DNA of 47,894 nucleotides from a virus. This document shows positions 3,617-47,894 of this stretch, in pieces; position 1 is the stretch's first letter, and each line of letters starts with the position of its first letter. The position numbers and the translations under genes were made by a program. The notes under the pieces are model-generated. The model did no database searches. It saw only the letters and a program-made list of their open reading frames with translations, and was not told the origin of the DNA. The stretch lies in the IMG/VR virus record IMGVR_UViG_3300031234_000013; one strand, given 5' to 3'.

Positions 3617-4260
3617 TGGTTAAAATAGTTGCTATATCAGACACACACATGGCACATAGAGACCTTTATAGACTAGTTAAGGGAGACATATTAGTACACT
3701 GTGGAGACTTAACACATAGAGGAAGATCACATGAATATGCAGATGTATTAGAGTTCTTTAGACTACACTGTGCAAGATATAAGCATGTAATATTTATAGC
3801 GGGTAACCACGATTTTGGGTGTAAAGAGTACATGGATAACATGTTACAATGTGGAATGTTCCCAGATAATCTTCATTACCTACATAATGAAAGTAAGGAA
3901 ATAATGGGTATAAAGTTTTTTGGAAGCCCTAACACACCTCCATTTTATGACTGGGCATATATGAGTAATGAGGGAGAACTGTCAAATATATACAGTCTTA
4001 TACCTAAAGATACTCAAGTTCTAATAACCCATGGGCCTGCATTTGGCATATTAGATGTAGAAAGTAGGAACGGTGAGCATTGTGGCAGCACTTCATTACT
4101 AAGAGCAATAGTTGACCTGGACAACTTAAAACATCACCTATTTGGACATATACATGCCTCCAATGGACAACAAGAATCACAAAACGTTACATTTAGTAAC
4201 TGCTCTGTTCTCGATGATAATTATGATATGAAATTTAAACCTACAGTTATTAAGGTATAA
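3616..4260 (+). CDS. Calcineurin-like metallophosphoesterase, MPPED/239FB-like subfamily
   Basis: ISDTH, GDILVHCGDLT, IAGNHD, LITHGP, HCGS and FGHIH motifs in the canonical order. Confidence 0.85.
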   Translation: MVKIVAISDTHMAHRDLYRLVKGDILVHCGDLTHRGRSHEYADVLEFFRLHCARYKHVIFIAGNHDFGCKEYMDNMLQCGMFPDNLHYLHNESKEIMGIKFFGSPNTPPFYDWAYMSNEGELSNIYSLIPKDTQVLITHGPAFGILDVESRNGEHCGSTSLLRAIVDLDNLKHHLFGHIHASNGQQESQNVTFSNCSVLDDNYDMKFKPTVIKV

Positions 4261-15308: not shown

Positions 15309-17737
15309 TAACTGTACTCATATATAAATACAACACCTGCAGACCCTGCGGCTCCTGCTGTACTTGAACCGTTAATAAGTCCACCGCCAGCGCCAGCTCC
15401 GAACCCTGTACCTGCTGTACCGGCTGCTGTTGAAGTTATGCCGGGCCCTCCTGAACCAAATGCTGTATCTCCGCCCTTTCCGCTAAATCCCGCTGAAGTT
15501 ACACCTCCAGACATTCCAACTGCTCCGCCCTGTCCTGGTACATTCAATAATGAAGTGCCTTGTGACGTTCCCACAGCTCCACCAAGACCTCCTGAATTAA
15601 ATGTGAAGCTACCACCTAAGTTGGCACTAGTAGGGCTTCCTGCACCACCATTTGCTGTTATAGTTCCTACTGTACAGGCTACTGTAGTGTTTCCACCAGT
15701 ACCACCATTATTAGATCCTGATGCTCCTGCTGTACCTGCTGCACCAATTGTAACAGTAGCAGATGTTCCTACTTGAGTTGATGTAAGTGAGCATTGAATT
15801 CTATTACCAGCACCGCCCCCGCCTACTGTATTCCAGTTACCAGCACCTAGAGCATCATTAACTCCTCCAGACCCACCGCCAGCGCCTAATACGTCAAAAA
15901 TTACTGTTGTTGCTGCTGTGTTTCGCGTGTACGTGCCAGAAGACGTGAATCTAGTTATTCCCAGTAATGTTCCTACAGGTAATGAAGTTATGCCAGTATT
16001 AGCAATGGTTATACCACCACCACTATTTGTTACACTTATTCCTGTTCCTGCTGTCAAAGTTGCTACAGTTAAAGTGTTACCTGTAGTATTTCCAATCAAC
16101 AATTGACCATTAGTATACGATGTAGTTCCTGTACCACCCTTATTAACTGGTACAGTTGGCAGCTGTGACGTTGTAGCTGTACCACTTATATCTGCGAAAG
16201 CTGGTTGAGACACATTAGGAGTTCCTGTAGTGTCTATATTATTAACCCATTTATGAGCTGTTGATGAAATACTAAATACACCTCCTAAAGCCAGCGAGGT
16301 TGGAGGTGGTATTGCATTAGCTATGTCAGCAGCTACTATAGTTCTATATGAAGGAGTTCCTAAAGTGGCTCCACTATTAGGCCCTGCTAAAAATGTATTA
16401 GAAAACTTTTGAAGTATTGTAGGCTGTAGATTACCTGAAACAGTTATAGGGCCGCTAGTCACTCCGCTATCGAATACTACACCATCTCCTACAAACCCTA
16501 CGGATGTAACACTACCAGATCCTGTACTTACAGTTGTCCATGTTGCGGGGCTAGCGTTACCATTAGAAACTAATATCTGTCCTGCTGTTCCATTAGCTGT
16601 AGTGTCAGATGCTATTAGATTATAAATTCCTAAAGGAGATCCTGCGTATGTTGGGAATGTTACTGTTGAAGGAAATGCTGATGTAAATGGTGTTCCAAAA
16701 TTAAATAAAGTACCATTAAGTACGCTGTACTGAGTTGGTGCAAAGTTTATACCAGCAGTATCAGTATTAGTGATTGTTCCTGTATTATTTACTCCTGTAC
16801 CGCCCTTACTTATACCTACTATATTGTGATACGTTGTAGCATTACCCGATGATGTTACATCACCTGTTAGATTAGCATTAGTTGTTACTGTTGCTGCATT
16901 ACCTGTGGTATTCTGGTTAAGAGTCGGAAATGTACAGTTAGTCAATGTTCCAGATGATGGAGTTCCAAGTGCAGGAGTTACAAGTGTAGGACTAGTACTC
17001 ATTACAAAAGTCGAACCAGTTCCTGTCTGTGACGTTACTGAGGTTGCATTACCTGTGCTTGTTATAGGGCCTGTAAGATTAGCATTAGTAGTAACAGTAG
17101 ATGCTAGTGTTGCAGTTGCAGCGTTACCAGTAGTACTCTGATTTAAAGTAGTTATACCTGGGTTAGGATAAGTACCTGTTAATACTCCTCCAGCAGTTCC
17201 GCTTGGAGCAGCTGACCCCGCAGTAGTTGCAAATGTAGCCGTTGCCGCATTACCAGTGGTACTTTGATTAAGAGTAGTAATTCCAGGATTAGGGTAAGTA
17301 CCTGTAAGTACACCACCAGCAGGGCCAGAAGGTGTAGCTCCTGTTATAAAAGTCTGTGTAGCTGAATCAATACGTCCTTGAGCATCAATAGTTATAATGG
17401 GTACTTCTGTACCACTACCATACACTCCAGGTATAACTGCAGTGTTTGCTAAATCATTAGGTTGAATTTGATCTGATAGTGTAGATTCTAATTGGCCAGA
17501 ACCAGTTACTACTTTAACAAACCCAGAACTTAGATCTGCTAATACTTGACCACTTTGTAGTGTACCAGTTAAGTCTCTGGTACTTAGTACATACTGTGCT
17601 GTTGTTGGAGCACCTGTACCACCAGTTAACAGGTTATTAGATAATAAAGTAAAGTAGTTACCCCATGCAGTTGTCAAGCTACCTGTGGGGGTAGCTATAG
17701 GACACTGAGTTGGTGGTGGCAATAACTTTTGAGGCAT
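15308..17737 (-). CDS. Tail fibre protein with internal repeats and a glycine-rich C-terminal domain
   Basis: 809 aa. GGVLTGTYPNPGITTLNQSTTGNAATAT occurs twice plus a third partial copy. The C-terminal ~200 aa is rich in GGxG. Confidence 0.75.
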   Translation of the reverse strand: MPQKLLPPPTQCPIATPTGSLTTAWGNYFTLLSNNLLTGGTGAPTTAQYVLSTRDLTGTLQSGQVLADLSSGFVKVVTGSGQLESTLSDQIQPNDLANTAVIPGVYGSGTEVPIITIDAQGRIDSATQTFITGATPSGPAGGVLTGTYPNPGITTLNQSTTGNAATATFATTAGSAAPSGTAGGVLTGTYPNPGITTLNQSTTGNAATATLASTVTTNANLTGPITSTGNATSVTSQTGTGSTFVMSTSPTLVTPALGTPSSGTLTNCTFPTLNQNTTGNAATVTTNANLTGDVTSSGNATTYHNIVGISKGGTGVNNTGTITNTDTAGINFAPTQYSVLNGTLFNFGTPFTSAFPSTVTFPTYAGSPLGIYNLIASDTTANGTAGQILVSNGNASPATWTTVSTGSGSVTSVGFVGDGVVFDSGVTSGPITVSGNLQPTILQKFSNTFLAGPNSGATLGTPSYRTIVAADIANAIPPPTSLALGGVFSISSTAHKWVNNIDTTGTPNVSQPAFADISGTATTSQLPTVPVNKGGTGTTSYTNGQLLIGNTTGNTLTVATLTAGTGISVTNSGGGITIANTGITSLPVGTLLGITRFTSSGTYTRNTAATTVIFDVLGAGGGSGGVNDALGAGNWNTVGGGGAGNRIQCSLTSTQVGTSATVTIGAAGTAGASGSNNGGTGGNTTVACTVGTITANGGAGSPTSANLGGSFTFNSGGLGGAVGTSQGTSLLNVPGQGGAVGMSGGVTSAGFSGKGGDTAFGSGGPGITSTAAGTAGTGFGAGAGGGLINGSSTAGAAGSAGVVFIYEYS

Positions 17738-31961: not shown

Positions 31962-32250
31962 AGTCTCTTATTTATAAAAACACTGGCCGCCTTACTGTGA
32001 CGCTTTCGACATAGTCTACAGGCATGTCAGGGAGCTGGCGGCTCTATTTACTGCTATCGAGATGCAAACTTCGATTTTCATACCATTAGCTTTGTAAGCA
32101 GGTTTAATGTTTCGGCACTATTGCCAGTCACCTTCTGTGCGCCAGAGGGGGCGGCGGGTTTGTGAGATCCCATCAACTCATCAGATACGAAGCCTCCTTT
32201 AGGCACATCATTAAGTCCATAATGGGGGTAAATGGGGACTTTGTATGATT
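31962..32250 (-). ncRNA. GC-rich structured leader or candidate non-coding RNA upstream of the zinc-ribbon ORF
   Basis: About 290 nt between a good promoter and the ORF with no credible ATG-initiated CDS. Locally far more GC than the flanks, with several stems (GCCGCC/GGCGGC, TGACAT/ATGTCG, GGCA/TGCC). Confidence 0.35.
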
Positions 32251-32255
32251 TTATC

Positions 32256-32284
32256 AATATATCACAAATAAGACTAAATGTCAA
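32256..32284 (-). promoter_or_regulatory. Sigma70-type promoter (TTGACA-N17-TATATT) reading leftward
   Basis: Minus strand reads TTGACAtttagtcttatttgtgaTATATT. Back-to-back with P1. Confidence 0.55.
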
Positions 32285-32312: not shown

Positions 32313-32341
32313 TTGACTTTTAACAAAAAATAGTGTACAAT
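32313..32341 (+). promoter_or_regulatory. P1: sigma70-type promoter TTGACT-N17-TACAAT reading rightward into repeat array 1
   Basis: TTGACTtttaacaaaaaatagtgTACAAT. Paralogous to P2. Confidence 0.65.
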
Positions 32342-32365
32342 ACACTTAGTCGACTGGGTTACTAT

Positions 32366-32445
32366 TACTAATAACTATATTACTAATAACTATATTACTA
32401 ATAACTATATTACTAATAACTATATTATTATATATTATTATATAT
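32366..32445 (+). repeat. Tandem repeat array 1: four perfect 15-mers (TACTAATAACTATAT) followed by two 10-mers (TATTATATAT)
   Basis: Units at 32366, 32381, 32396 and 32411, then 32426-32445. Confidence 0.95.
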
Positions 32446-32564: not shown

Positions 32565-32765
32565 TCATATAATAACCTTATATTCTCTTAGCTTATATCT
32601 TAACTTAGATCTAGATATACCTAATAACTTAGATGCAAGTGTCTGATTATGTTTAGTATAGTCCATTGCCTCTAATATTAACTCCCGCTCAACCCTACTG
32701 AGTGTCAATGTTAAGTTAAGATGATTAGCATTTGTTAATGTCTCTCTTTCTTTAGCTGTAGTCAT
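32565..32765 (-). CDS. Fis/NtrC-type HTH (HTH_8) DNA-binding protein (66 aa)
   Basis: RVERELILEAMDYTKHNQTLASKLLGISRSKLRYKLREYKV matches the Fis-family C-terminal HTH. Confidence 0.75.
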   Translation of the reverse strand: MTTAKERETLTNANHLNLTLTLSRVERELILEAMDYTKHNQTLASKLLGISRSKLRYKLREYKVII

Positions 32766-32781
32766 GTTGTTATCCTATTGT

Positions 32782-33048
32782 TTATATTAAGTATTGACTA
32801 TCTTGTTTCTCACAAGTTATTGATATTACTTCATCCATGGGTTCTTCAATTTCAACAACACGTCCATTCTGTGAACATTTGAACCTTATTAATTTAAAAG
32901 TAATATTTAAACCTCTAGTGGCTTCTGGACTTATATTCCAGCAATTACGTACTGTATGTAACACTGGCACTCGTAAAGTTAACACAGCCTTAAAGTAATT
33001 GTAGTTCAATTTACACAAAAGTTTAAAGATTTGAAACTTAGTTCTCAT
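32782..33048 (-). CDS. Hypothetical protein (88 aa from ATG 33048; alternative starts 33081 and 33165)
   Basis: The chosen ATG overlaps the stop of the upstream 57-aa ORF (ATGAGAACTAA). Confidence 0.45.
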   Translation of the reverse strand: MRTKFQIFKLLCKLNYNYFKAVLTLRVPVLHTVRNCWNISPEATRGLNITFKLIRFKCSQNGRVVEIEEPMDEVISITCEKQDSQYLI

Positions 33049-33211
33049 ATATCTTCTCCATGATACCGCTGTCAGCTCCATAGAGGCACCTTCCTGCTCT
33101 TTTTTCCGGCTTAGTAGTACTGGTGGAAGGGTTGCGTGCAGATAACGCCTCCAGAGCGTCCGCAATTCGTTTGAGCTGTGTTACTATTTCATATTCTGCT
33201 GTTGTACTCAT
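33038..33211 (-). CDS. 57-aa protein
   Basis: ATGA overlap with the stop of 33208..33447. Read manually, below the track cutoff. Confidence 0.45.
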   Translation of the reverse strand: MSTTAEYEIVTQLKRIADALEALSARNPSTSTTKPEKRAGRCLYGADSGIMEKIYEN

Positions 33212-33447
33212 AGTGTATTACCCCTTGTCCCATATTGTTCCTCTAAATCACCCATATCATTACCCCACTCATGTTCCTCATGGCTGTGATTATCTTCACA
33301 ACCCTGAGAACAGAAGTACAGTGTATCCCCATAGTCTCTATCAAGCTCTACAACCCATTTACTGGTGAACTTACCGCACCAGTCACAGTTCTTTGCTGGA
33401 ACCTCACCTTGGTCTGACAATTCGCTTATACGTGATCTACTGTTCAT
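33208..33447 (-). CDS. Zinc-ribbon protein (79 aa, acidic His-rich C-terminus)
   Basis: CDWCGK..(20 aa)..FCSQGC. First gene after the leftward promoter. Confidence 0.6.
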   Translation of the reverse strand: MNSRSRISELSDQGEVPAKNCDWCGKFTSKWVVELDRDYGDTLYFCSQGCEDNHSHEEHEWGNDMGDLEEQYGTRGNTL

Positions 33448-33481
33448 TGTGTTTACCCCACTGTTGTTAGTACATAGACCA

Positions 33482-33509
33482 ATTATAACACAGAGTAAAT
33501 ATTACGCAA
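33482..33509 (-). promoter_or_regulatory. Sigma70-type promoter (TTGCGT-N16-TGTTATAAT, extended -10) for the leftward regulatory operon
   Basis: Minus strand reads TTGCGTaatatttactctgtgtTATAAT. Confidence 0.6.
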
Positions 33510-33571
33510 TAGTTTGTGACAAATATTTTGTAAATTTTTCAGTTTGACTTTTAGTCATTTGAAAATACTAC

Positions 33572-33599
33572 GGAATCTCAGAAAAAGACCTGAGATTCC
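33572..33599. other. Perfect 10-bp inverted repeat with an 8-nt loop (GGAATCTCAG..CTGAGATTCC)
   Basis: Read directly. No adjacent U-tract on either strand. Confidence 0.7.
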
Positions 33600-33668
33600 T
33601 ATAAAATTGAGTACTTTTTACTCTACTTTCTTAAAAATTGGTCAATATAGTGCCAAGTACCTACGCGC

Positions 33669-33978
33669 CAGTCACCAAAGTCACTGTATATACTCCCCCT
33701 GGGTGGGTAGGTATGTAATACATTACTGTCATGGACTTAAGATGATTATGTTATATATGTTATATATAATACATACATACAATCAACGCTTTATGAACTG
33801 GTTATTGTGTATGTTATATGATATATCAATACAATCATACTGTTGTGACAGTAGTACCTGTGTGCATGGAGGCCATTTTTATTATAAATGCAGTGAGTGC
33901 TGTGACTGTATGGTTACAGCAGTCACGATGGTCACTGTGTATCACATATGGTCGGATCATGGTCACTGTAATCACGAT
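33669..33978. repeat. Cluster of GTCACTGT-type motifs (33680, 33931, 33962; variants at 33902 and 33920), including ATGGTCACTGTnnATCAC twice
   Basis: Read directly. The non-coding region is rich in inverted repeats (GTGACTG..CAGTCAC at 33902-33926). Confidence 0.7.
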
Positions 33979-33990
33979 AGTATCAGTATC

Positions 33991-34003
33991 CCGGAAATTC
34001 CGG
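33991..34003. other. 13-bp perfect palindrome CCGGAAATTCCGG
   Basis: Read directly. About 105 bp upstream of the P2 -35 element. Confidence 0.7.
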
Positions 34004-34109
34004 CTAACTCAAGTAATTGATTATATTATAGGTGATTAATAATAGTCTAGTATTGATAATTTATAGTAAATTATATTTAACTATTATACAGGTAGTTATT
34101 AAATAGTTC

Positions 34110-34138
34110 TTGACAAATTGTAAAATATGTTGTACAAT
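34110..34138 (+). promoter_or_regulatory. P2: main early promoter TTGACA-N17-TACAAT
   Basis: TTGACAaattgtaaaatatgttgTACAAT. The leader is paralogous to that of P1. Confidence 0.7.
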
Positions 34139-34170
34139 AACGTATAGTCCACCGGGATCCATAGTAGTAA

Positions 34171-34365
34171 TAACTATAGTACTATATAACTATAGTAACT
34201 ATATAACTATAGTAACTATATAACTACAGTGACTATAACATATAATAACATATAACTATAATAATATATATAATAACTATAGTAATATATAATAACATAT
34301 AACTATAATAACTATAGTGACTATCATGACTACAGTGACTATAGTGACCTTATGACTACAGTGAG
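34171..34365 (+). repeat. Repeat array 2: four ~17-bp tandem units (TAACTATAGTAACTATA), six ACTATAGT palindromes, second-order repeats and ACAGTGAC motifs
   Basis: ACTATAGT at 34173, 34189, 34206, 34276, 34311 and 34338. ACAGTGAC at 34226 and 34332, plus a 7/8 match at 34358. Confidence 0.9.
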
Positions 34366-34481
34366 AGAGATAAACATGATGAACTATAGCATACATAGTA
34401 GATATATTAGATATATGGTATATAATGATATATAGGGATATGTAGAATAGATAATAATGATAAATAAATATTATATGGTAC

Positions 34482-34509
34482 TTGTATTGTGTAATAGTTG
34501 AGCTATACT
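34482..34509 (+). promoter_or_regulatory. Possible secondary early promoter (TTGTAT-N16-TATACT)
   Basis: Weaker match ~35 nt upstream of the first early ORF. Confidence 0.3.
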
Positions 34510-34543
34510 ATAAGTAAGAGATAGTTAATTATATAGGTGACTT

Positions 34544-34690
34544 ATGAACATATCACAGAACATAGTTAATAAGATGAAGAATTTAGAAGAAACAAGACGT
34601 GCTAAGAATTATTATATACAAGATAGGATATTGAAGAACAAGGAATTACAAGAACTGATTATTGAACTTGAACATCATGAATGTGAATAA
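34544..34690 (+). CDS. 48-aa early protein
   Basis: AGGTGA SD plus ATG. Read manually. Confidence 0.5.
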   Translation: MNISQNIVNKMKNLEETRRAKNYYIQDRILKNKELQELIIELEHHECE

Positions 34691-44243: not shown

Positions 44244-46223
44244 ATGAGTATATTAGCTAAAGCAGGTAAGCGTCTTACATCTACAATTGAGAATGAGATG
44301 TCATTACAAGAGTATTTAGATCTGTGTAAGACTGATAAACTTGCATTTGCTACACCAGCAGAACGTTTGTTGGCAGCTATTGGACAAGTTGAGATGTTGG
44401 ATACAAGAAAGGATGACAGATTAAGCCGTATATTCAGTAACGAAACAGTTCCAACTTATCCTAGTTTCAATAAGATATTTGGATTAGAACATACAATTAA
44501 GGATATTGCAGGATTTGTAAGACACGCCGCTCAAGGCCTTGAAGAGCGTAAGCAGATTCTATATCTTTTAGGGCCTGTTGGTAGTAGTAAATCATCAATT
44601 GTGTCTATTATTAAGAGGCTAATGGAGTCAGTGCCTTTCTACGCCCTTAAATTCCATAAAGAAGCTGTATATGGTAAAGATAAGGACGGTAAAACTATAC
44701 TATTAGAGGATGAAGTTAATCAAATAAGCCCTATTAATGATAACCCATTATCCTTATTCACTAAGGAAGATGCAGAAGAACTAGGTATTCCAGAACGTTA
44801 TTTCGGAGTTATACCTAGCCCATGGTTGACTAAGCGTATTACTGAAGTTGCTGGGGATTTAACTAAATTCACAGTTGTTAAAGTATACCCTAGTGAGGCT
44901 CACCAGTTAGCTATTAGTCATATTGAACCTGGCGATGAAAATAATCAAGATATTTCATCATTAGTTGGTAAACTTAACATTAGAGAGATAGAGAGCTATG
45001 CACAAAACGACCCTGACGCCTATAGCTTCTCTGGAGGATTGTGTCTCGGCAATAGAGGTATTACAGAATTTGCGGAAATGTTCAAATCACCAATTAAATC
45101 ACTTAATCCGCTCCTCGAAGCAACTCAGTCAGGATTTTATAAAGGAACTGAGTCAATTTCCGCCATACCGTTTGAAGGTATTATTATCGCCCATAGTAAT
45201 GAGAGCGAATGGCAGAAGTTCCGTAATGACAAACGGAATGAGGCACTCATTGATAGAATATTTATCGTTAGAGTTCCTTACTGCCTTAGATACTCAGAGG
45301 AAACTAAAATCTACGAAAAAATGCTCAAAGAAAGTAGCTTAGGAACAGCTCCAGTAGCTCCTAAGACGCTAGAAACAATGGCACAGTTCTCAGTTATGAG
45401 TCGATTGTTTAAGTCTAAACATAGCCAGCCTACTGTTAAGATGAAGATTTATAATGGAGAGAATTTAAAACATACTAATCCAGATGCTAAAAATGTACCT
45501 GAATACCATGTTGAAGCTCACGAGGCTAATGCAGATGAAGGATTTAGTGGTATCAGTACACGATTCGCATTTAAGATATTAGCTCAGACATTTAATTATA
45601 GTCAGGACGAAGTAAGTGCTAACCCTCTACACTTGCTTATGATATTATCAAAGCGTATTAAGGAAGAACATTTAGCTAAGGAAGACGAATTACTGTACTT
45701 AGAATTAATTGATGTACTTTATAAGGAGTTTCACAAGACATTTGATAAGGATGTTAAGAAGAGCTACATAGAGTCATATCAAGACTATGGTCAGAACATA
45801 TTTGATAAGTACATAATATACGCTGATCACGTGTTAAATGAGAATGATTATAGGGATGAGATGACAGGTTTGTCTATGACTCCTCAGGACTTAGAGAAGT
45901 ACCTGGAAGAGATAGAAACACCAGCTAATGTAACTAATAAAAAGGATTTTAGACATGAAGTTGTAAGATACTGCTTGAAATATCAAGTATCTAATAAAGG
46001 AAAGAATCCACCATGGGGTAGTTACAATAAAATAAGGGAAGTTATTGAGAAGAAGATATTCGCTAACATGGACGACATGTTACCAATTATCAGTAATACA
46101 GAGAAAGCTAACGCTAGTGACAAGAGAGCACACCAGGAGTTTGTTACTAGAATGCAGACTCTAGGGTATACTCCTAAGATGATTCAAATTCTTATTGACT
46201 GGTATATTAGATCTCCGAGGTAG
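44244..46223 (+). CDS. prkA: PrkA/YeaG family AAA+ serine protein kinase
   Basis: SLQEYLDLCK, AERLL, RLSRIFSN, HAAQGLEERKQILYLLGPVGSSKSS (Walker A), GGLCLGNRGITEFAEMFK. Collinear with E. coli YeaG over ~650 aa. Confidence 0.92.
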   Translation: MSILAKAGKRLTSTIENEMSLQEYLDLCKTDKLAFATPAERLLAAIGQVEMLDTRKDDRLSRIFSNETVPTYPSFNKIFGLEHTIKDIAGFVRHAAQGLEERKQILYLLGPVGSSKSSIVSIIKRLMESVPFYALKFHKEAVYGKDKDGKTILLEDEVNQISPINDNPLSLFTKEDAEELGIPERYFGVIPSPWLTKRITEVAGDLTKFTVVKVYPSEAHQLAISHIEPGDENNQDISSLVGKLNIREIESYAQNDPDAYSFSGGLCLGNRGITEFAEMFKSPIKSLNPLLEATQSGFYKGTESISAIPFEGIIIAHSNESEWQKFRNDKRNEALIDRIFIVRVPYCLRYSEETKIYEKMLKESSLGTAPVAPKTLETMAQFSVMSRLFKSKHSQPTVKMKIYNGENLKHTNPDAKNVPEYHVEAHEANADEGFSGISTRFAFKILAQTFNYSQDEVSANPLHLLMILSKRIKEEHLAKEDELLYLELIDVLYKEFHKTFDKDVKKSYIESYQDYGQNIFDKYIIYADHVLNENDYRDEMTGLSMTPQDLEKYLEEIETPANVTNKKDFRHEVVRYCLKYQVSNKGKNPPWGSYNKIREVIEKKIFANMDDMLPIISNTEKANASDKRAHQEFVTRMQTLGYTPKMIQILIDWYIRSPR

Positions 46224-46225
46224 TT

Positions 46226-46420
46226 ATGGCTAAGTTTAAAGTCTCATTAAAAGAGCTAGTTAGATTAGTTAGACAGTCTTCACAGGACATTGTATTAGCT
46301 GCGCAGGCTTTGGAGTCAGGGTTAGAGGGATCTTTTCCTGACAGCTTGTTACAAGACCTTAAAGATGATATATTTAGATATGAACAACTAGTTAAAGAAC
46401 GTCAAAAAAGGAACGTATAA
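46226..46420 (+). CDS. 64-aa protein inserted between prkA and the DUF444 gene
   Basis: ORF track entry. TAATG overlap with the next gene. Confidence 0.55.
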   Translation: MAKFKVSLKELVRLVRQSSQDIVLAAQALESGLEGSFPDSLLQDLKDDIFRYEQLVKERQKRNV

Positions 46421-47652
46421 TGCCTCTTATTATTGACAAGAGATTTCTACCTAAAGGAGCTACAATAGGATCTCGTCAAAAATTCATTGATAGGTATAAA
46501 GACTCTATTAAAAAGAAAATAAGGGAAATGATAGATAAGAACTCTATTAAGGATTTTAATAACGGCTCTAAGAAGATTAAGATTAATATAGATGACTTAG
46601 ACAGTCCTAATTTTGAATTAGACTCTACTACTGGTAACAAAGATCACGTACTTATAGGTAATAAGACTTTTAAGAAAGGAGACACTATACCAAGACCTTC
46701 AAGAGGAAGTGGTAAATCTGGAAAGTCTGGAGGTAATTCTGGAGACTCAAACGATGGTTTCGAGTTCACACTTACTGAGGAAGAATTCGCTAACCTATTT
46801 TTCGAGGATTTAGAGCTTCCAGATCTTATTAAAAGACAGTTTAGTGTTGACACTTTTGAAATACAGCCTGCTGGGTATAGCAAGAGTGGAGGGCCTAGCA
46901 GTTTAAACGTAAAAAGGACTATTCTAAATAGCTTAGGACGTAGATTTATACAGAGAAAAAAGGATCAATTAATATTAGAACTAAATGATATGGAAACTGC
47001 AACGGATTCTGACACTAGTGAGGAATTTGTATTAGTACCTAAAAAGAAAGTTCAATTCATTGAAGAAATGGATTTAAGGTACAATTTTAGAGATAAGGTA
47101 GAGCAGCCCACAACTAAGGCAGTAATGTTCTGCATGTTGGACGTAAGTGGAAGTATGGGAGAGTATGAGAAGGATATAGCTAAACGATTCTTCATTCTTC
47201 TTAATCTGTTCCTTAAACGAAATTACGAACAAGTAGATGTTGTGTTCATAAGGCACTCAGATACAGCAGAAGAAGTAGACGAGAAGAAGTTTTTCTATGA
47301 TACATGGTCTGGTGGTACAGTAATAAGCTCTGGATATGAAAAAATAAAGGATATTATAAACACTAGATACAATCCTGAAATGTGGAATGTATACATAGCT
47401 CAGGCTAGTGATGGTGAGAATTTCGAATATGACAATGATTTAATGACTGATTTATTAGTTAATAGAATATTACCAAGTGTTCAGTATATGGCCTATATAA
47501 ATATAGGATCTAGGAATTCAAGTAATAATGATTTTCTTAAAATACTTGACAATGTATCTGATAGTAATGTAAACTTTAAGAGTAAAGTAGTTATTAATAG
47601 TAAGGATATTTTCGAAGTATTCAGAAGCCTATTTAAGAAGGGGAAGGTATGA
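46420..47652 (+). CDS. yeaH: YeaH/YhbH family protein (DUF444, vWA-like C-terminus)
   Basis: IDKRF..RQKFIDRYK, Gly/Ser-rich linker, FEFTLTEEEFANLFFEDLELPDL, MLDVSGSMGE. Confidence 0.9.
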   Translation: MPLIIDKRFLPKGATIGSRQKFIDRYKDSIKKKIREMIDKNSIKDFNNGSKKIKINIDDLDSPNFELDSTTGNKDHVLIGNKTFKKGDTIPRPSRGSGKSGKSGGNSGDSNDGFEFTLTEEEFANLFFEDLELPDLIKRQFSVDTFEIQPAGYSKSGGPSSLNVKRTILNSLGRRFIQRKKDQLILELNDMETATDSDTSEEFVLVPKKKVQFIEEMDLRYNFRDKVEQPTTKAVMFCMLDVSGSMGEYEKDIAKRFFILLNLFLKRNYEQVDVVFIRHSDTAEEVDEKKFFYDTWSGGTVISSGYEKIKDIINTRYNPEMWNVYIAQASDGENFEYDNDLMTDLLVNRILPSVQYMAYINIGSRNSSNNDFLKILDNVSDSNVNFKSKVVINSKDIFEVFRSLFKKGKV

Positions 47653-47894
47653 AAAAAGTTAAAAATAGCCCTTTCCTACTAGATGATTGGACTGGGCAAT
47701 CATTAGAAGATGGTTGGAACATAATAGCTAAGCTGGCTAAGGAAAAGTACAATTTAGACTGGTATAATCCTAACTTTGAAGTAGTTAACTTCGAAGATAT
47801 GTTACATATTTACACAGGATCATTACCTGTAATGTACAGCCACTGGAGTTTTGGAAGACAGTACATAGAGCTTCATAAGCAATATTTAGCTGAT
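47649..47894 (+). CDS. spoVR: SpoVR/YcgB family protein, 5' part (runs off the window end and continues at 2..1372)
   Basis: ATGA overlap with the DUF444 stop. The last 127 nt duplicate the window start in the same frame. Confidence 0.9.
   Translation, partial: MKKVKNSPFLLDDWTGQSLEDGWNIIAKLAKEKYNLDWYNPNFEVVNFEDMLHIYTGSLPVMYSHWSFGRQYIELHKQYLAD
47768..47894. repeat. Terminal overlap copy B (identical to 1-127)
   Basis: Direct comparison. Confidence 0.95.

Follow-up and report, generated by a model that had tools for sequence, protein, structure and literature searches.

The left end of bacteriophage T7 and the iteron-type replication origins are the closest described systems to the element analysed here, an array of short AT-rich repeats (array A) which together with a strong promoter occupies positions 34110-34540 of the IMG/VR virus record IMGVR_UViG_3300031234_000013. 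This record, 47,894 nucleotides (nt) long and analysed in full, is referred to as the window. A first-pass annotation, made from the sequence letters, had described the element as a promoter followed by a ~390-nt untranslated leader packed with the palindromic octamer ACTATAGT, and had stated that no described element with this layout was known. This was too strong. The layout is not unprecedented, since the T7 left end has the same order of elements and the end of Pseudomonas phage LUZ24 is similar.

In T7 the order is a C-rich/G-rich element near the end (C5..G5 in the terminal repeat), a short-repeat array in one orientation, strong sigma-70 early promoters within ~1 kb and the first early gene. 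The likeness extends to word copies on both sides of the end element, to a T7-type replisome and to rightward promoter plus AT-rich modules on both sides of the junction (in T7, SRL/phiOL and A1-A3 on the left and SRR/phiOR on the right). In eight lineages of the family studied here, a word repeated in one orientation likewise occupies part of the interval from the C-run, the candidate end element, to the early sigma-70 promoters, and further copies flank this element on either side. The T7 word CCTAAAG, however, has a 13-nt period and is not AT-extreme, whereas the window array is phased at 9/17 nt and is denser. Moreover, the window phage is without an RNA polymerase (RNAP) of its own, and its genes on both strands diverge from the region. 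To our knowledge the function of SRL and SRR in T7 is not known, and a literature survey on their function and on LUZ24 leader RNAs yielded nothing usable.

The ends of LUZ24 (Bruynoghevirus) share with the window a homologous large terminase subunit (TerL, 38% identity), an organisation in two convergent gene arms, a C-run (at the physical end in LUZ24, which starts CCCCCAGGAGTCCCCCAG, and at the candidate end in the window), ~1.9 kb of non-coding DNA across the joined ends (~1 kb of it after the C-rich genome end) and sigma-70 promoters on both sides. LUZ24 differs in that no tandem array was detected in its first 1.5 kb and in its unrelated small terminase subunit (TerS). EBPR podovirus 1, the best cultured TerL match, was discarded as a layout model because of its different gene layout.

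Iteron origins such as lambda ori, P4 ori/crr, R6K and P1 oriR/incA resemble the locus in their helix-phased 17-22-nt direct repeats, AT-rich neighbour, lineage-specific words, variable copy number, distant second cluster (P4 crr, P1 incA) and nearby transcription. They differ from it in that neither an initiator gene in the window nor DnaA boxes in the region were found, and for such origins a 9-nt sub-phase and as many as 37 copies would be unusual. Arrays of ribbon-helix-helix (RHH) proteins (pSM19035 omega heptads, MetJ met-boxes, R1 ParR/parC) also consist of contiguous 7-11-nt units, direct and inverted, which recur at several promoters within a replicon; those of MetJ are palindromic octamers in tandem. 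Here the differences are that no RHH protein is recognised in the window, that the units are many more and that there is no partition ATPase. CRISPR arrays combine 24-48-nt repeats with unique spacers, whereas the units of array A stand head to tail without them. The locus departs from the T7 left end and from iteron origins in being phased at 9 nt, in its very high copy number, in a word that is exchanged between close lineages and in the duplicated promoter-box-array cassette. It also differs in its setting, a phage with a T7 replisome but no RNAP, in which the genes point away from the region.

Composition of array A and its counterparts in related phages

Array A is contained in a non-coding stretch of 1.1 kb (33448-34543) between two divergent operons. 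There are eight exact copies of ACTATAGT in the 47,894 nt of the window, and six of them start at 34173, 34189, 34206, 34276, 34311 and 34338, within 34173-34345. This agrees with the six copies in ~175 bp reported by the first-pass annotation, which had expected far fewer than one and had proposed a genome-wide count as a check on local enrichment. Shuffling 34110-34540 5000 times with dinucleotides preserved yields a mean of 0.28 copies, with no shuffle above 3, and the clustering is therefore not a by-product of AT-richness. Tandem Repeats Finder recovers the ~17-bp units noted before as a period of 17 nt with 10.1 copies (34170-34343, 80% match), and in addition a period of 9 nt with 20 copies (34171-34345). 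The 20-mer AATAACATATAACTATAATA is present twice (34244 and 34291) and ACAGTGA three times (34226, 34332 and 34358), as annotated. The repeat unit is a 9-10-nt word, YTAYAGTRAC, i.e. (C/T)TA(T/C)AGT(G/A)AC, of which the octamer ACTATAGT is only a part; the palindrome arises in array A where CTATAG has an A before and a T after it. Thus, the octamers are real, but to call the unit a palindromic octamer over-reads it, because the corresponding word of the related lineage L008 is not a palindrome.

With a GC content of 11-15%, array A is the most AT-rich DNA of the region, and AT-rich segments are found at the place equivalent to the spacer behind it in relatives of the window phage. The forward frames of 34146-34543 contain 16-30 stop codons each, the longest open stretch being 49 codons, and the first real gene downstream (gene 1) starts with an ATG at 34544, both as described before. 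Inverted copies of the array A word lie to the left, at 33641-33689 and 33922-33980, and the feature therefore reaches beyond 34110-34540. A perfect 13-bp palindrome, CCGGAAATTCCGG (33989-34005), absent from L008, is located between the left inverted cluster and the promoter.

This near-consensus promoter, termed P_A, was correctly annotated; it is the sole TTGACA-N17-TACAAT match in the whole window, and its surroundings from -60 to +30 are almost invariant in L008. The distance from P_A to gene 1 that had been described as a ~390-nt leader holds, but a second promoter, P2, lies ~35 nt upstream of gene 1, so that the long leader is only one of two possible 5' ends. P2 is kept in L008 as TTGTAT-N16-TATAAT. 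Its counterparts in L009 and L010 are 12/12 promoters, and inspection by eye shows a TTGACA-N16-TATAAT ahead of gene 1 in L012.

The relatives represent 10 other lineages, with 61-85% primase or 66-69% TerL identity; the long contigs were reached through primase homologues of 54-85% identity and through TerL. A TerL profile run against IMG/VR and against metagenome contigs added just two more usable relatives, L022 and L102, and the profile of a small HTH_8 protein encoded near the region was too variable for scanning. In 11/11 lineages, a non-coding spacer of 0.9-1.7 kb separates the leftward small-gene operon from the rightward early genes. An array with a period of 9-21 nt is found at the equivalent position in eight of the ten other lineages (L008, L009, L010, L011, L012, L018, L019 and L022). 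The conservation in related genomes that the first-pass annotation had asked about therefore holds for the place of the array but not for its word, which differs each time (Table 1); between the window and L008 the word is kept despite rearranged arrays. Comparison of the intergenic regions by exact k-mer sharing was uninformative at the divergence of these lineages.

In the window, L008-L012, L018 and L019, the density of the word in the spacer exceeds that in the remainder of the locus 4-20-fold, and the other non-coding DNA of these loci contains essentially no arrays. In eight lineages the main array lies 200-800 nt to the right of a conserved C-run and to the left of the promoter nearest to the first early gene, and single word copies abut the C-run and lie left of it. 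Consensus sigma-70 promoters, one leftward and one rightward, bracket the spacer in L009 and L010, and the leftward one is also present in L011. The only consensus rightward promoter of L009, L010 and L012 is downstream of the array.

The arrangement of promoter, box and array exists twice. Module B is a paralogue of P_A with its box and array A, has the same orientation and lies 1.8-2.4 kb further to the left in both the window and L008; its promoter, P_B, reads antisense into the small leftward operon. In L008, module B (3846-4093) contains a perfect array of 7.8 units of 18 nt, whose word is shared with array A of the same phage. Copy number is the only difference between the window and the near-identical strain L003, which has one 17-nt unit fewer in array A and two units of 15 nt in array B, compared to four in the window. 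The array, its phasing, its conserved place with a changing word, its duplication together with a promoter and the plasticity of its copy number are plain observations, and the comparative anatomy of the region is solid; its function is what we infer.

Two further observations concern the arrays themselves. Several assemblies break in or beside them: L002 in the 15-nt array, L013 58 nt before gene 1 and L022 in the 10/20-nt array. Since these are independent assemblies, the arrays are a practical cause of fragmented or mis-collapsed contigs in this family. Furthermore, in L008 (6290-6560) a -35-like GTGACT and a -10-like TATAGT recur at 17-18-nt spacing as a consequence of the 9-nt phase. The L008 array has 14 such promoter-like sites, mostly on the plus strand, compared to 4.5 +/- 2.1 in shuffles; these could form a track that binds RNAP or simply follow from the word.

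Table 1. Positions of the control-region features in the window, and array words of the lineages
Feature	Position	Strand	Description
Leftward consensus promoter, back to back with P_B	32256-32284	-	TTGACA-17-TATATT with TG; long leader plus Zn-ribbon/late genes
Module B	32313-32427	+	P_B TTGACT-N17-TACAAT (32313-32341), box, and perfect 15-nt x 4.3 array TATTACTAATAACTA (32363-32427)
P_L, leftward promoter	33482-33509	-	TTGCGT-N16-TGnTATAAT; serves small minus-strand operon; read from sequence
Hairpin/dyad	33572-33599	.	11-bp stem; compensatory changes in L008, GGAATCTCAG..CTGAGATTCC vs GGAATTCCAT..ATGGAATTCC
Bipartite element	33640-33720	.	Box TCAATATAGTGCCAAGTACCTAC (33640-33663) and C-run ACTCCCCCTGGGTGGGTAGG (33701-33720); candidate terminase/genome-end site
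Left cluster of array A word, inverted	33840-33985	-	GTCACTGT, GTCACGAT and others; inverted repeats I1, I5, I8; minus-strand matches at 33922, 33962, 33971
P_A, distal early promoter	34110-34138	+	TTGACA-N17-TACAAT; 11/12 match; paralogous to P_B
Box at ~+1 to +16 of P_A	34146-34161	+	TAGTCCACCGGGATCC; identical in L008; variant TAGTCSACTGGGTTAC after P_B in both phages
Array A	34170-34365	+	~20 units in 9-nt phase, with 17-nt and 47-nt higher orders; holds the six ACTATAGT
AT-rich, GATA-rich spacer, array A to P2	34395-34480	.	Candidate unwinding region; GC 17.5%
P2, proximal early promoter	34482-34509	+	TTGTAT-N16-TATACT; read from sequence
Array word, window			YTAYAGTRAC; period 9/17 nt
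Array word, L008			YATAGTGAC (non-palindromic, ~30 uses); period 9/18 nt
Array word, L009			CTAGCAGCT; period 10 nt
Array word, L010			AATAGCTAY; period 10 nt
Array word, L011			ACTACTAGGCA; period 19 nt
Array word, L012			AAGCTTAATAAG
Array word, L018			ACTATAKA; period 10 nt
Array word, L019			TAGGCTGATAACATA; period 21 nt
Array word, L022			CCTTGCCTAG; period 10/20 nt

What the array may do

We propose, from sequence comparison, that what these arrays have in common is to offer a lineage-specific DNA-binding protein a phased DNA platform with many sites. The reading we favour is that the ACTATAGT cluster is the core of such an iteron-type platform, most likely a transcription-activated replication origin. 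We put its probability at roughly one in three (about 0.35), and it is on these terms that we infer protein binding, origin function and a role of transcription. The array would act as DNA and not as RNA. A phage DNA-binding protein specific to the lineage would cooperatively coat the phased sites of the array, which recur about once per helical turn, and the inverted sites on the other side of P_A would be part of the coated platform. Together with the adjoining AT-rich stretch, the array would be the place where replication starts in a phage whose replisome is of T7 type but which has neither an RNAP of its own nor a recognisable initiator. Opening and priming would be driven by host-RNAP transcription, in the window/L008 lineage by transcription from the strong sigma-70 promoter P_A into the array and in all lineages by negative supercoiling between the divergent promoters P_L and P2/P_R.

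An origin is ranked first because the units are iteron-like and 17-21 nt long, because the array has the lowest GC content of the region and is accompanied by a second AT-rich stretch, and because strong host-type promoters lie on both sides, the array being flanked by consensus sigma-70 promoters in each lineage examined. Moreover, the phage has a T7-type replisome but neither RNAP nor initiator, and it carries two cassettes, much like the several promoter plus AT-rich modules of T7. The repeats themselves are as in iteron origins, with a period of 17 nt in the window and of 18, 19, 20 and 21 nt in relatives, a sub-phase of 9-10 nt and a GC content of 11-17%. As for the features of the T7 primary origin, the replisome is present, and a promoter upstream of AT-rich DNA is found in the window and L008 only.

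Several points weigh against an origin. Promoters that read into the array are confined to the window/L008 lineage, where there are two in each phage, and are not found in L009-L012. L020 and L102 have no clear array in the spacer. DnaA boxes are not enriched in the window (13 compared to 17.4 expected) and form no cluster, and none lies in the region; Pfam and PHROG scans of ~40 window proteins recognised no initiator of the Rep/O type, nor was any other array binder identified among the window proteins. The cumulative GC skew has its minimum at ~34 kb, as would suit an origin, but gene orientation switches there as well and fully confounds the signal. With a genome end 450 nt to the left, supercoiling between divergent promoters could be invoked only for concatemers or circles. 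Finally, the perfect recent unit copies and the copy-number changes between strains are equally expected from neutral slippage.

The first-pass annotation had suggested as binder the 66-aa protein encoded at 32565-32765. This HTH_8/Fis-like protein is indeed conserved, in 9/9 lineages from which its region was recovered, but its recognition helix does not track the word, which also counts against a coated platform. L018 and L019 have almost the same recognition helix and different words, whereas the window and L018 have similar words and different helices.

No member of the phage family is in culture, and the closest cultured relatives share no more than ~40% protein identity; its T7-type replisome goes together with a full reliance on host RNAP. 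Its control region, with a conserved box and C-run as candidate end site, lineage-specific phased arrays and consensus promoters, offers concrete cis-elements with which to address how replication starts and how genome ends are processed in such phages. The pattern of the same place with a different word is a handle for finding the cognate binding protein, and could also explain the long-unexplained short-repeat arrays at T7-like genome ends. Should the array be an ordinary origin or operator, the result is a useful annotation and not new biology.

Two of the three readings that the first-pass annotation had put forward, the transcription-activated origin and the operator array, remain the leading ones, whereas the third, a repeat RNA, is disfavoured by folding, terminator and promoter position. 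An operator is the strongest competitor of the origin, although we consider it unlikely. A small phage repressor, for example an RHH or helix-turn-helix (HTH) protein, would polymerise on the contiguous 9-nt sites and switch the flanking promoters: the P_A and P_B transcripts would be blocked just past their starts, and P2 and the late promoter beside arrays A and B would be modulated. Cooperative repressors (omega heptads, MetJ boxes, ParR/parC) typically occupy contiguous sites spaced by about one helical turn, and array A has just this arrangement, with units in the 7-11-nt range of RHH operators. The module of promoter, box and array is present twice, as co-regulated promoters would show, and arrays, wherever present, are upstream of the proximal early promoter. 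Yet, the 20 to 37 sites are far above known operators, the position of the array relative to the promoters varies across lineages, and the HTH_8 protein fails to co-vary with the word. Gene 1 was rejected as an RHH autoregulator, since only in L011, where it is the first gene after the array, does it give RHH matches, and these are below threshold (several RHH families, E ~1e-3). No RHH protein or other repressor is recognised in the window, whose gene 1 has no family match and is 40% identical to that of L008 even though the two phages share the word.

Rather improbable, in our view, is that the arrays are the end-adjacent short repeats of a phage with direct terminal repeats, comparable to SRL and SRR of T7, which would mark the concatemer junction and serve recognition by TerS, end processing or the handling of the leading end during ejection. 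TerL is homologous to packagers of short direct terminal repeats (LUZ24 gp66, 38% identity, E = 1e-52; also phiEco32-like and 7-11-like matches), and the layout is of the LUZ24 type, with TerL and TerS leftward, promoters, a putative terminal repeat and promoters into the early genes across ~1 kb of non-coding DNA. The conserved box and C-run resemble the LUZ24 end given above and the TTCCCCCATAGGGGG of T7, word copies abut and flank the C-run as CCTAAAG does in the T7 terminal repeat, SRL and SRR, and the 400-1000 nt from the C-run to the early promoters match T7 and LUZ24. In addition, TerS (140 aa, N-terminal HTH) has the same HTH in the window and L008 and a different one in L009 and L020, which in these four sequences is compatible with TerS as the array binder. 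On the other side, the window is a circular assembly with a 127-nt overlap and unmapped ends, LUZ24 itself is without such an array, the model for the proposed role, SRL/SRR, is of no known function, and a second array with its own promoter, 1.8 kb away and past four genes, is unexpected for a pac site.

It is also improbable, and somewhat more so, that the arrays are AT-rich minisatellites without sequence-specific function, which arise by slippage and are tolerated in a spacer constrained only in length or AT-richness. The perfect recent unit copies (15 nt x 4.3 in the window, 18 nt x 7.8 in L008) and the copy-number differences between otherwise identical strains are as slippage would produce them, the word changes freely between lineages, and two lineages (L020 and L102) lack arrays. 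Against this, most lineages have their array at one place and essentially none in the other non-coding DNA of the loci, the window and L008 share a word in spite of array rearrangement, and the array was duplicated along with promoter and box. Non-tandem and inverted copies occur at a distance, and as some of these dispersed copies abut the C-run, we favour binding sites over plain slippage.

A long shot, built on analogy with T7, is that the duplicated cassette of promoter, +1 box and self-expanding array is the host-RNAP counterpart of phiOL/phiOR in an RNAP-less T7-replisome family. The two rightward cassettes would then bracket the concatemer junction and link host transcription with genome entry, with the start of replication and/or with processing of the junction. 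The array would be a track that captures or pauses RNAP through serial -35/-10-like hexamers in the 9-nt phase and is tuned by copy number.

Very improbable is the repeat RNA, in which tandem motifs of the P_A and P_B transcripts would titrate a host or defence RNA-binding protein, like pseudo-ToxI or CsrB-type sponges. The strong promoter directly before both arrays in the window/L008 lineage and the conserved 5' box would fit, as would fast copy-number change in an arms race. We down-weight this reading because the P_A transcript does not fold better than its shuffled versions (z = +0.83 in the window and -1.79 in L008), and a leader RNA is unlikely also because in most other lineages the array is upstream of the proximal early promoter; L009, L010 and L012 lack a good promoter reading into it. 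Nor were a terminator, a credible Rfam match (gathering threshold for the whole window, E-value threshold for 31.5-34.6 kb) or an adjacent toxin found, the units are of 9/17 nt and not of the 34-45 nt of type III antitoxins, and inverted DNA copies lie outside any transcript. Chi-like sites or restriction decoys, matS, Noc or Spo0A boxes and primase sites (GTC) were dismissed, since the word differs between lineages or the orientation is unfit.

Other elements of the control region and the genome

The box of the bipartite element is 100% conserved in L008, and the bipartite pattern is present in 11/11 lineages. Throughout the family it consists of a box, (C)ATATAGTGC..ACC(C)TAC, and ~45 nt later a C5-6..C4-5 run, in a spacer otherwise unconserved. 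Judged from its sequence and place, it is probably the terminase cleavage or genome-end site. Its positions (ATAGTGC..ACC(C)TAC plus C-run) in relatives are ~5680-5750 in L008, ~4030-4110 in L009, ~4100-4180 in L010, ~3510-3580 in L019, ~6070-6135 in L020 and, flipped, ~3310-3365 in L102. The hairpin is located ~65 nt upstream of P_L and has no convincing T-run on either strand. Consensus leftward promoters are found at the place of P_L in L009, L010 and L011.

The leftward promoter that is back to back with P_B has equivalents, read by eye, in L009-L011. A leftward consensus sigma-70 promoter followed by a GC-rich leader of ~250-300 nt is present in the window (31975-32284, minus strand), L008 (3476-3800), L009 (2920-3195), L010 (1806-2095) and L011 (1700-1990). 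In most lineages a hairpin and T-run close the leader directly ahead of the Zn-ribbon gene and late operon; the window has the stem GCCGCC/GGCGGC at 31986-32042 and then TGTTTTT. This likeness to the terminated leader of lambda PR'-tR' suggests that the late genes may be controlled by antitermination. For the leader that precedes the Zn-ribbon gene, RNAalifold gave no supported consensus structure from a naive alignment.

The window is a circularly assembled phage genome whose ends overlap by 127 nt, giving a true length of 47,767 nt, and the same genome is present in several peat or soil-type assemblies. It has no close cultured phage, the best matches of primase and TerL being 42% and 41% identical, and the region has no DNA match among 50,697 phage records. 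The rightward arm, from 34544 past the artificial contig end to ~7.5 kb, carries the early and replication genes; among its products are ClpP and PrkA/DUF444/SpoVR as well as a T7-type primase-helicase, a family A polymerase, a 5'-3' exonuclease and a gp3.5-like amidase. The leftward arm, from 31.5 kb to 8.4 kb, carries the genes for structural proteins, lysis and terminase. The small leftward operon (32565-33447), which abuts the non-coding stretch, encodes the HTH_8 protein, a conserved ~90-aa protein and others. In the Pfam and PHROG scans, no phage RNAP, integrase or repressor was recognised among the ~40 window proteins.

The PrkA, DUF444 (YeaH/YhbH) and SpoVR (YcgB) genes form a complete triad in the replication arm (44244-47652 and 32-1372), which all relatives have as well. 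In cultured phage records, PrkA homologues are found only in a few jumbo phages, in Thermus phages and in one Enterobacter record. ARAGORN predicts a 92-nt tRNA-Phe at 47747-47838, inside the SpoVR frame and the zone of the 127-nt overlap, which is probably a false positive. A tyrosine recombinase (Phage_integrase) of 270-310 aa, which the window phage lacks, is encoded in L018 (11662-12480), L019 (12512-13348) and L020 (12670-13593), where it sits with an RNA ligase or RtcB between the primase-helicase and polymerase genes. Finally, tandem repeats also occur in frame within coding sequence, in the window in the gene of an 809-aa structural protein (17095-17322, 126 nt x 1.8), and in relatives in the DUF6745 gene of L012 (5203-5724, 12 nt x 43) and in L019 (9166-9480, 15 nt x 21).

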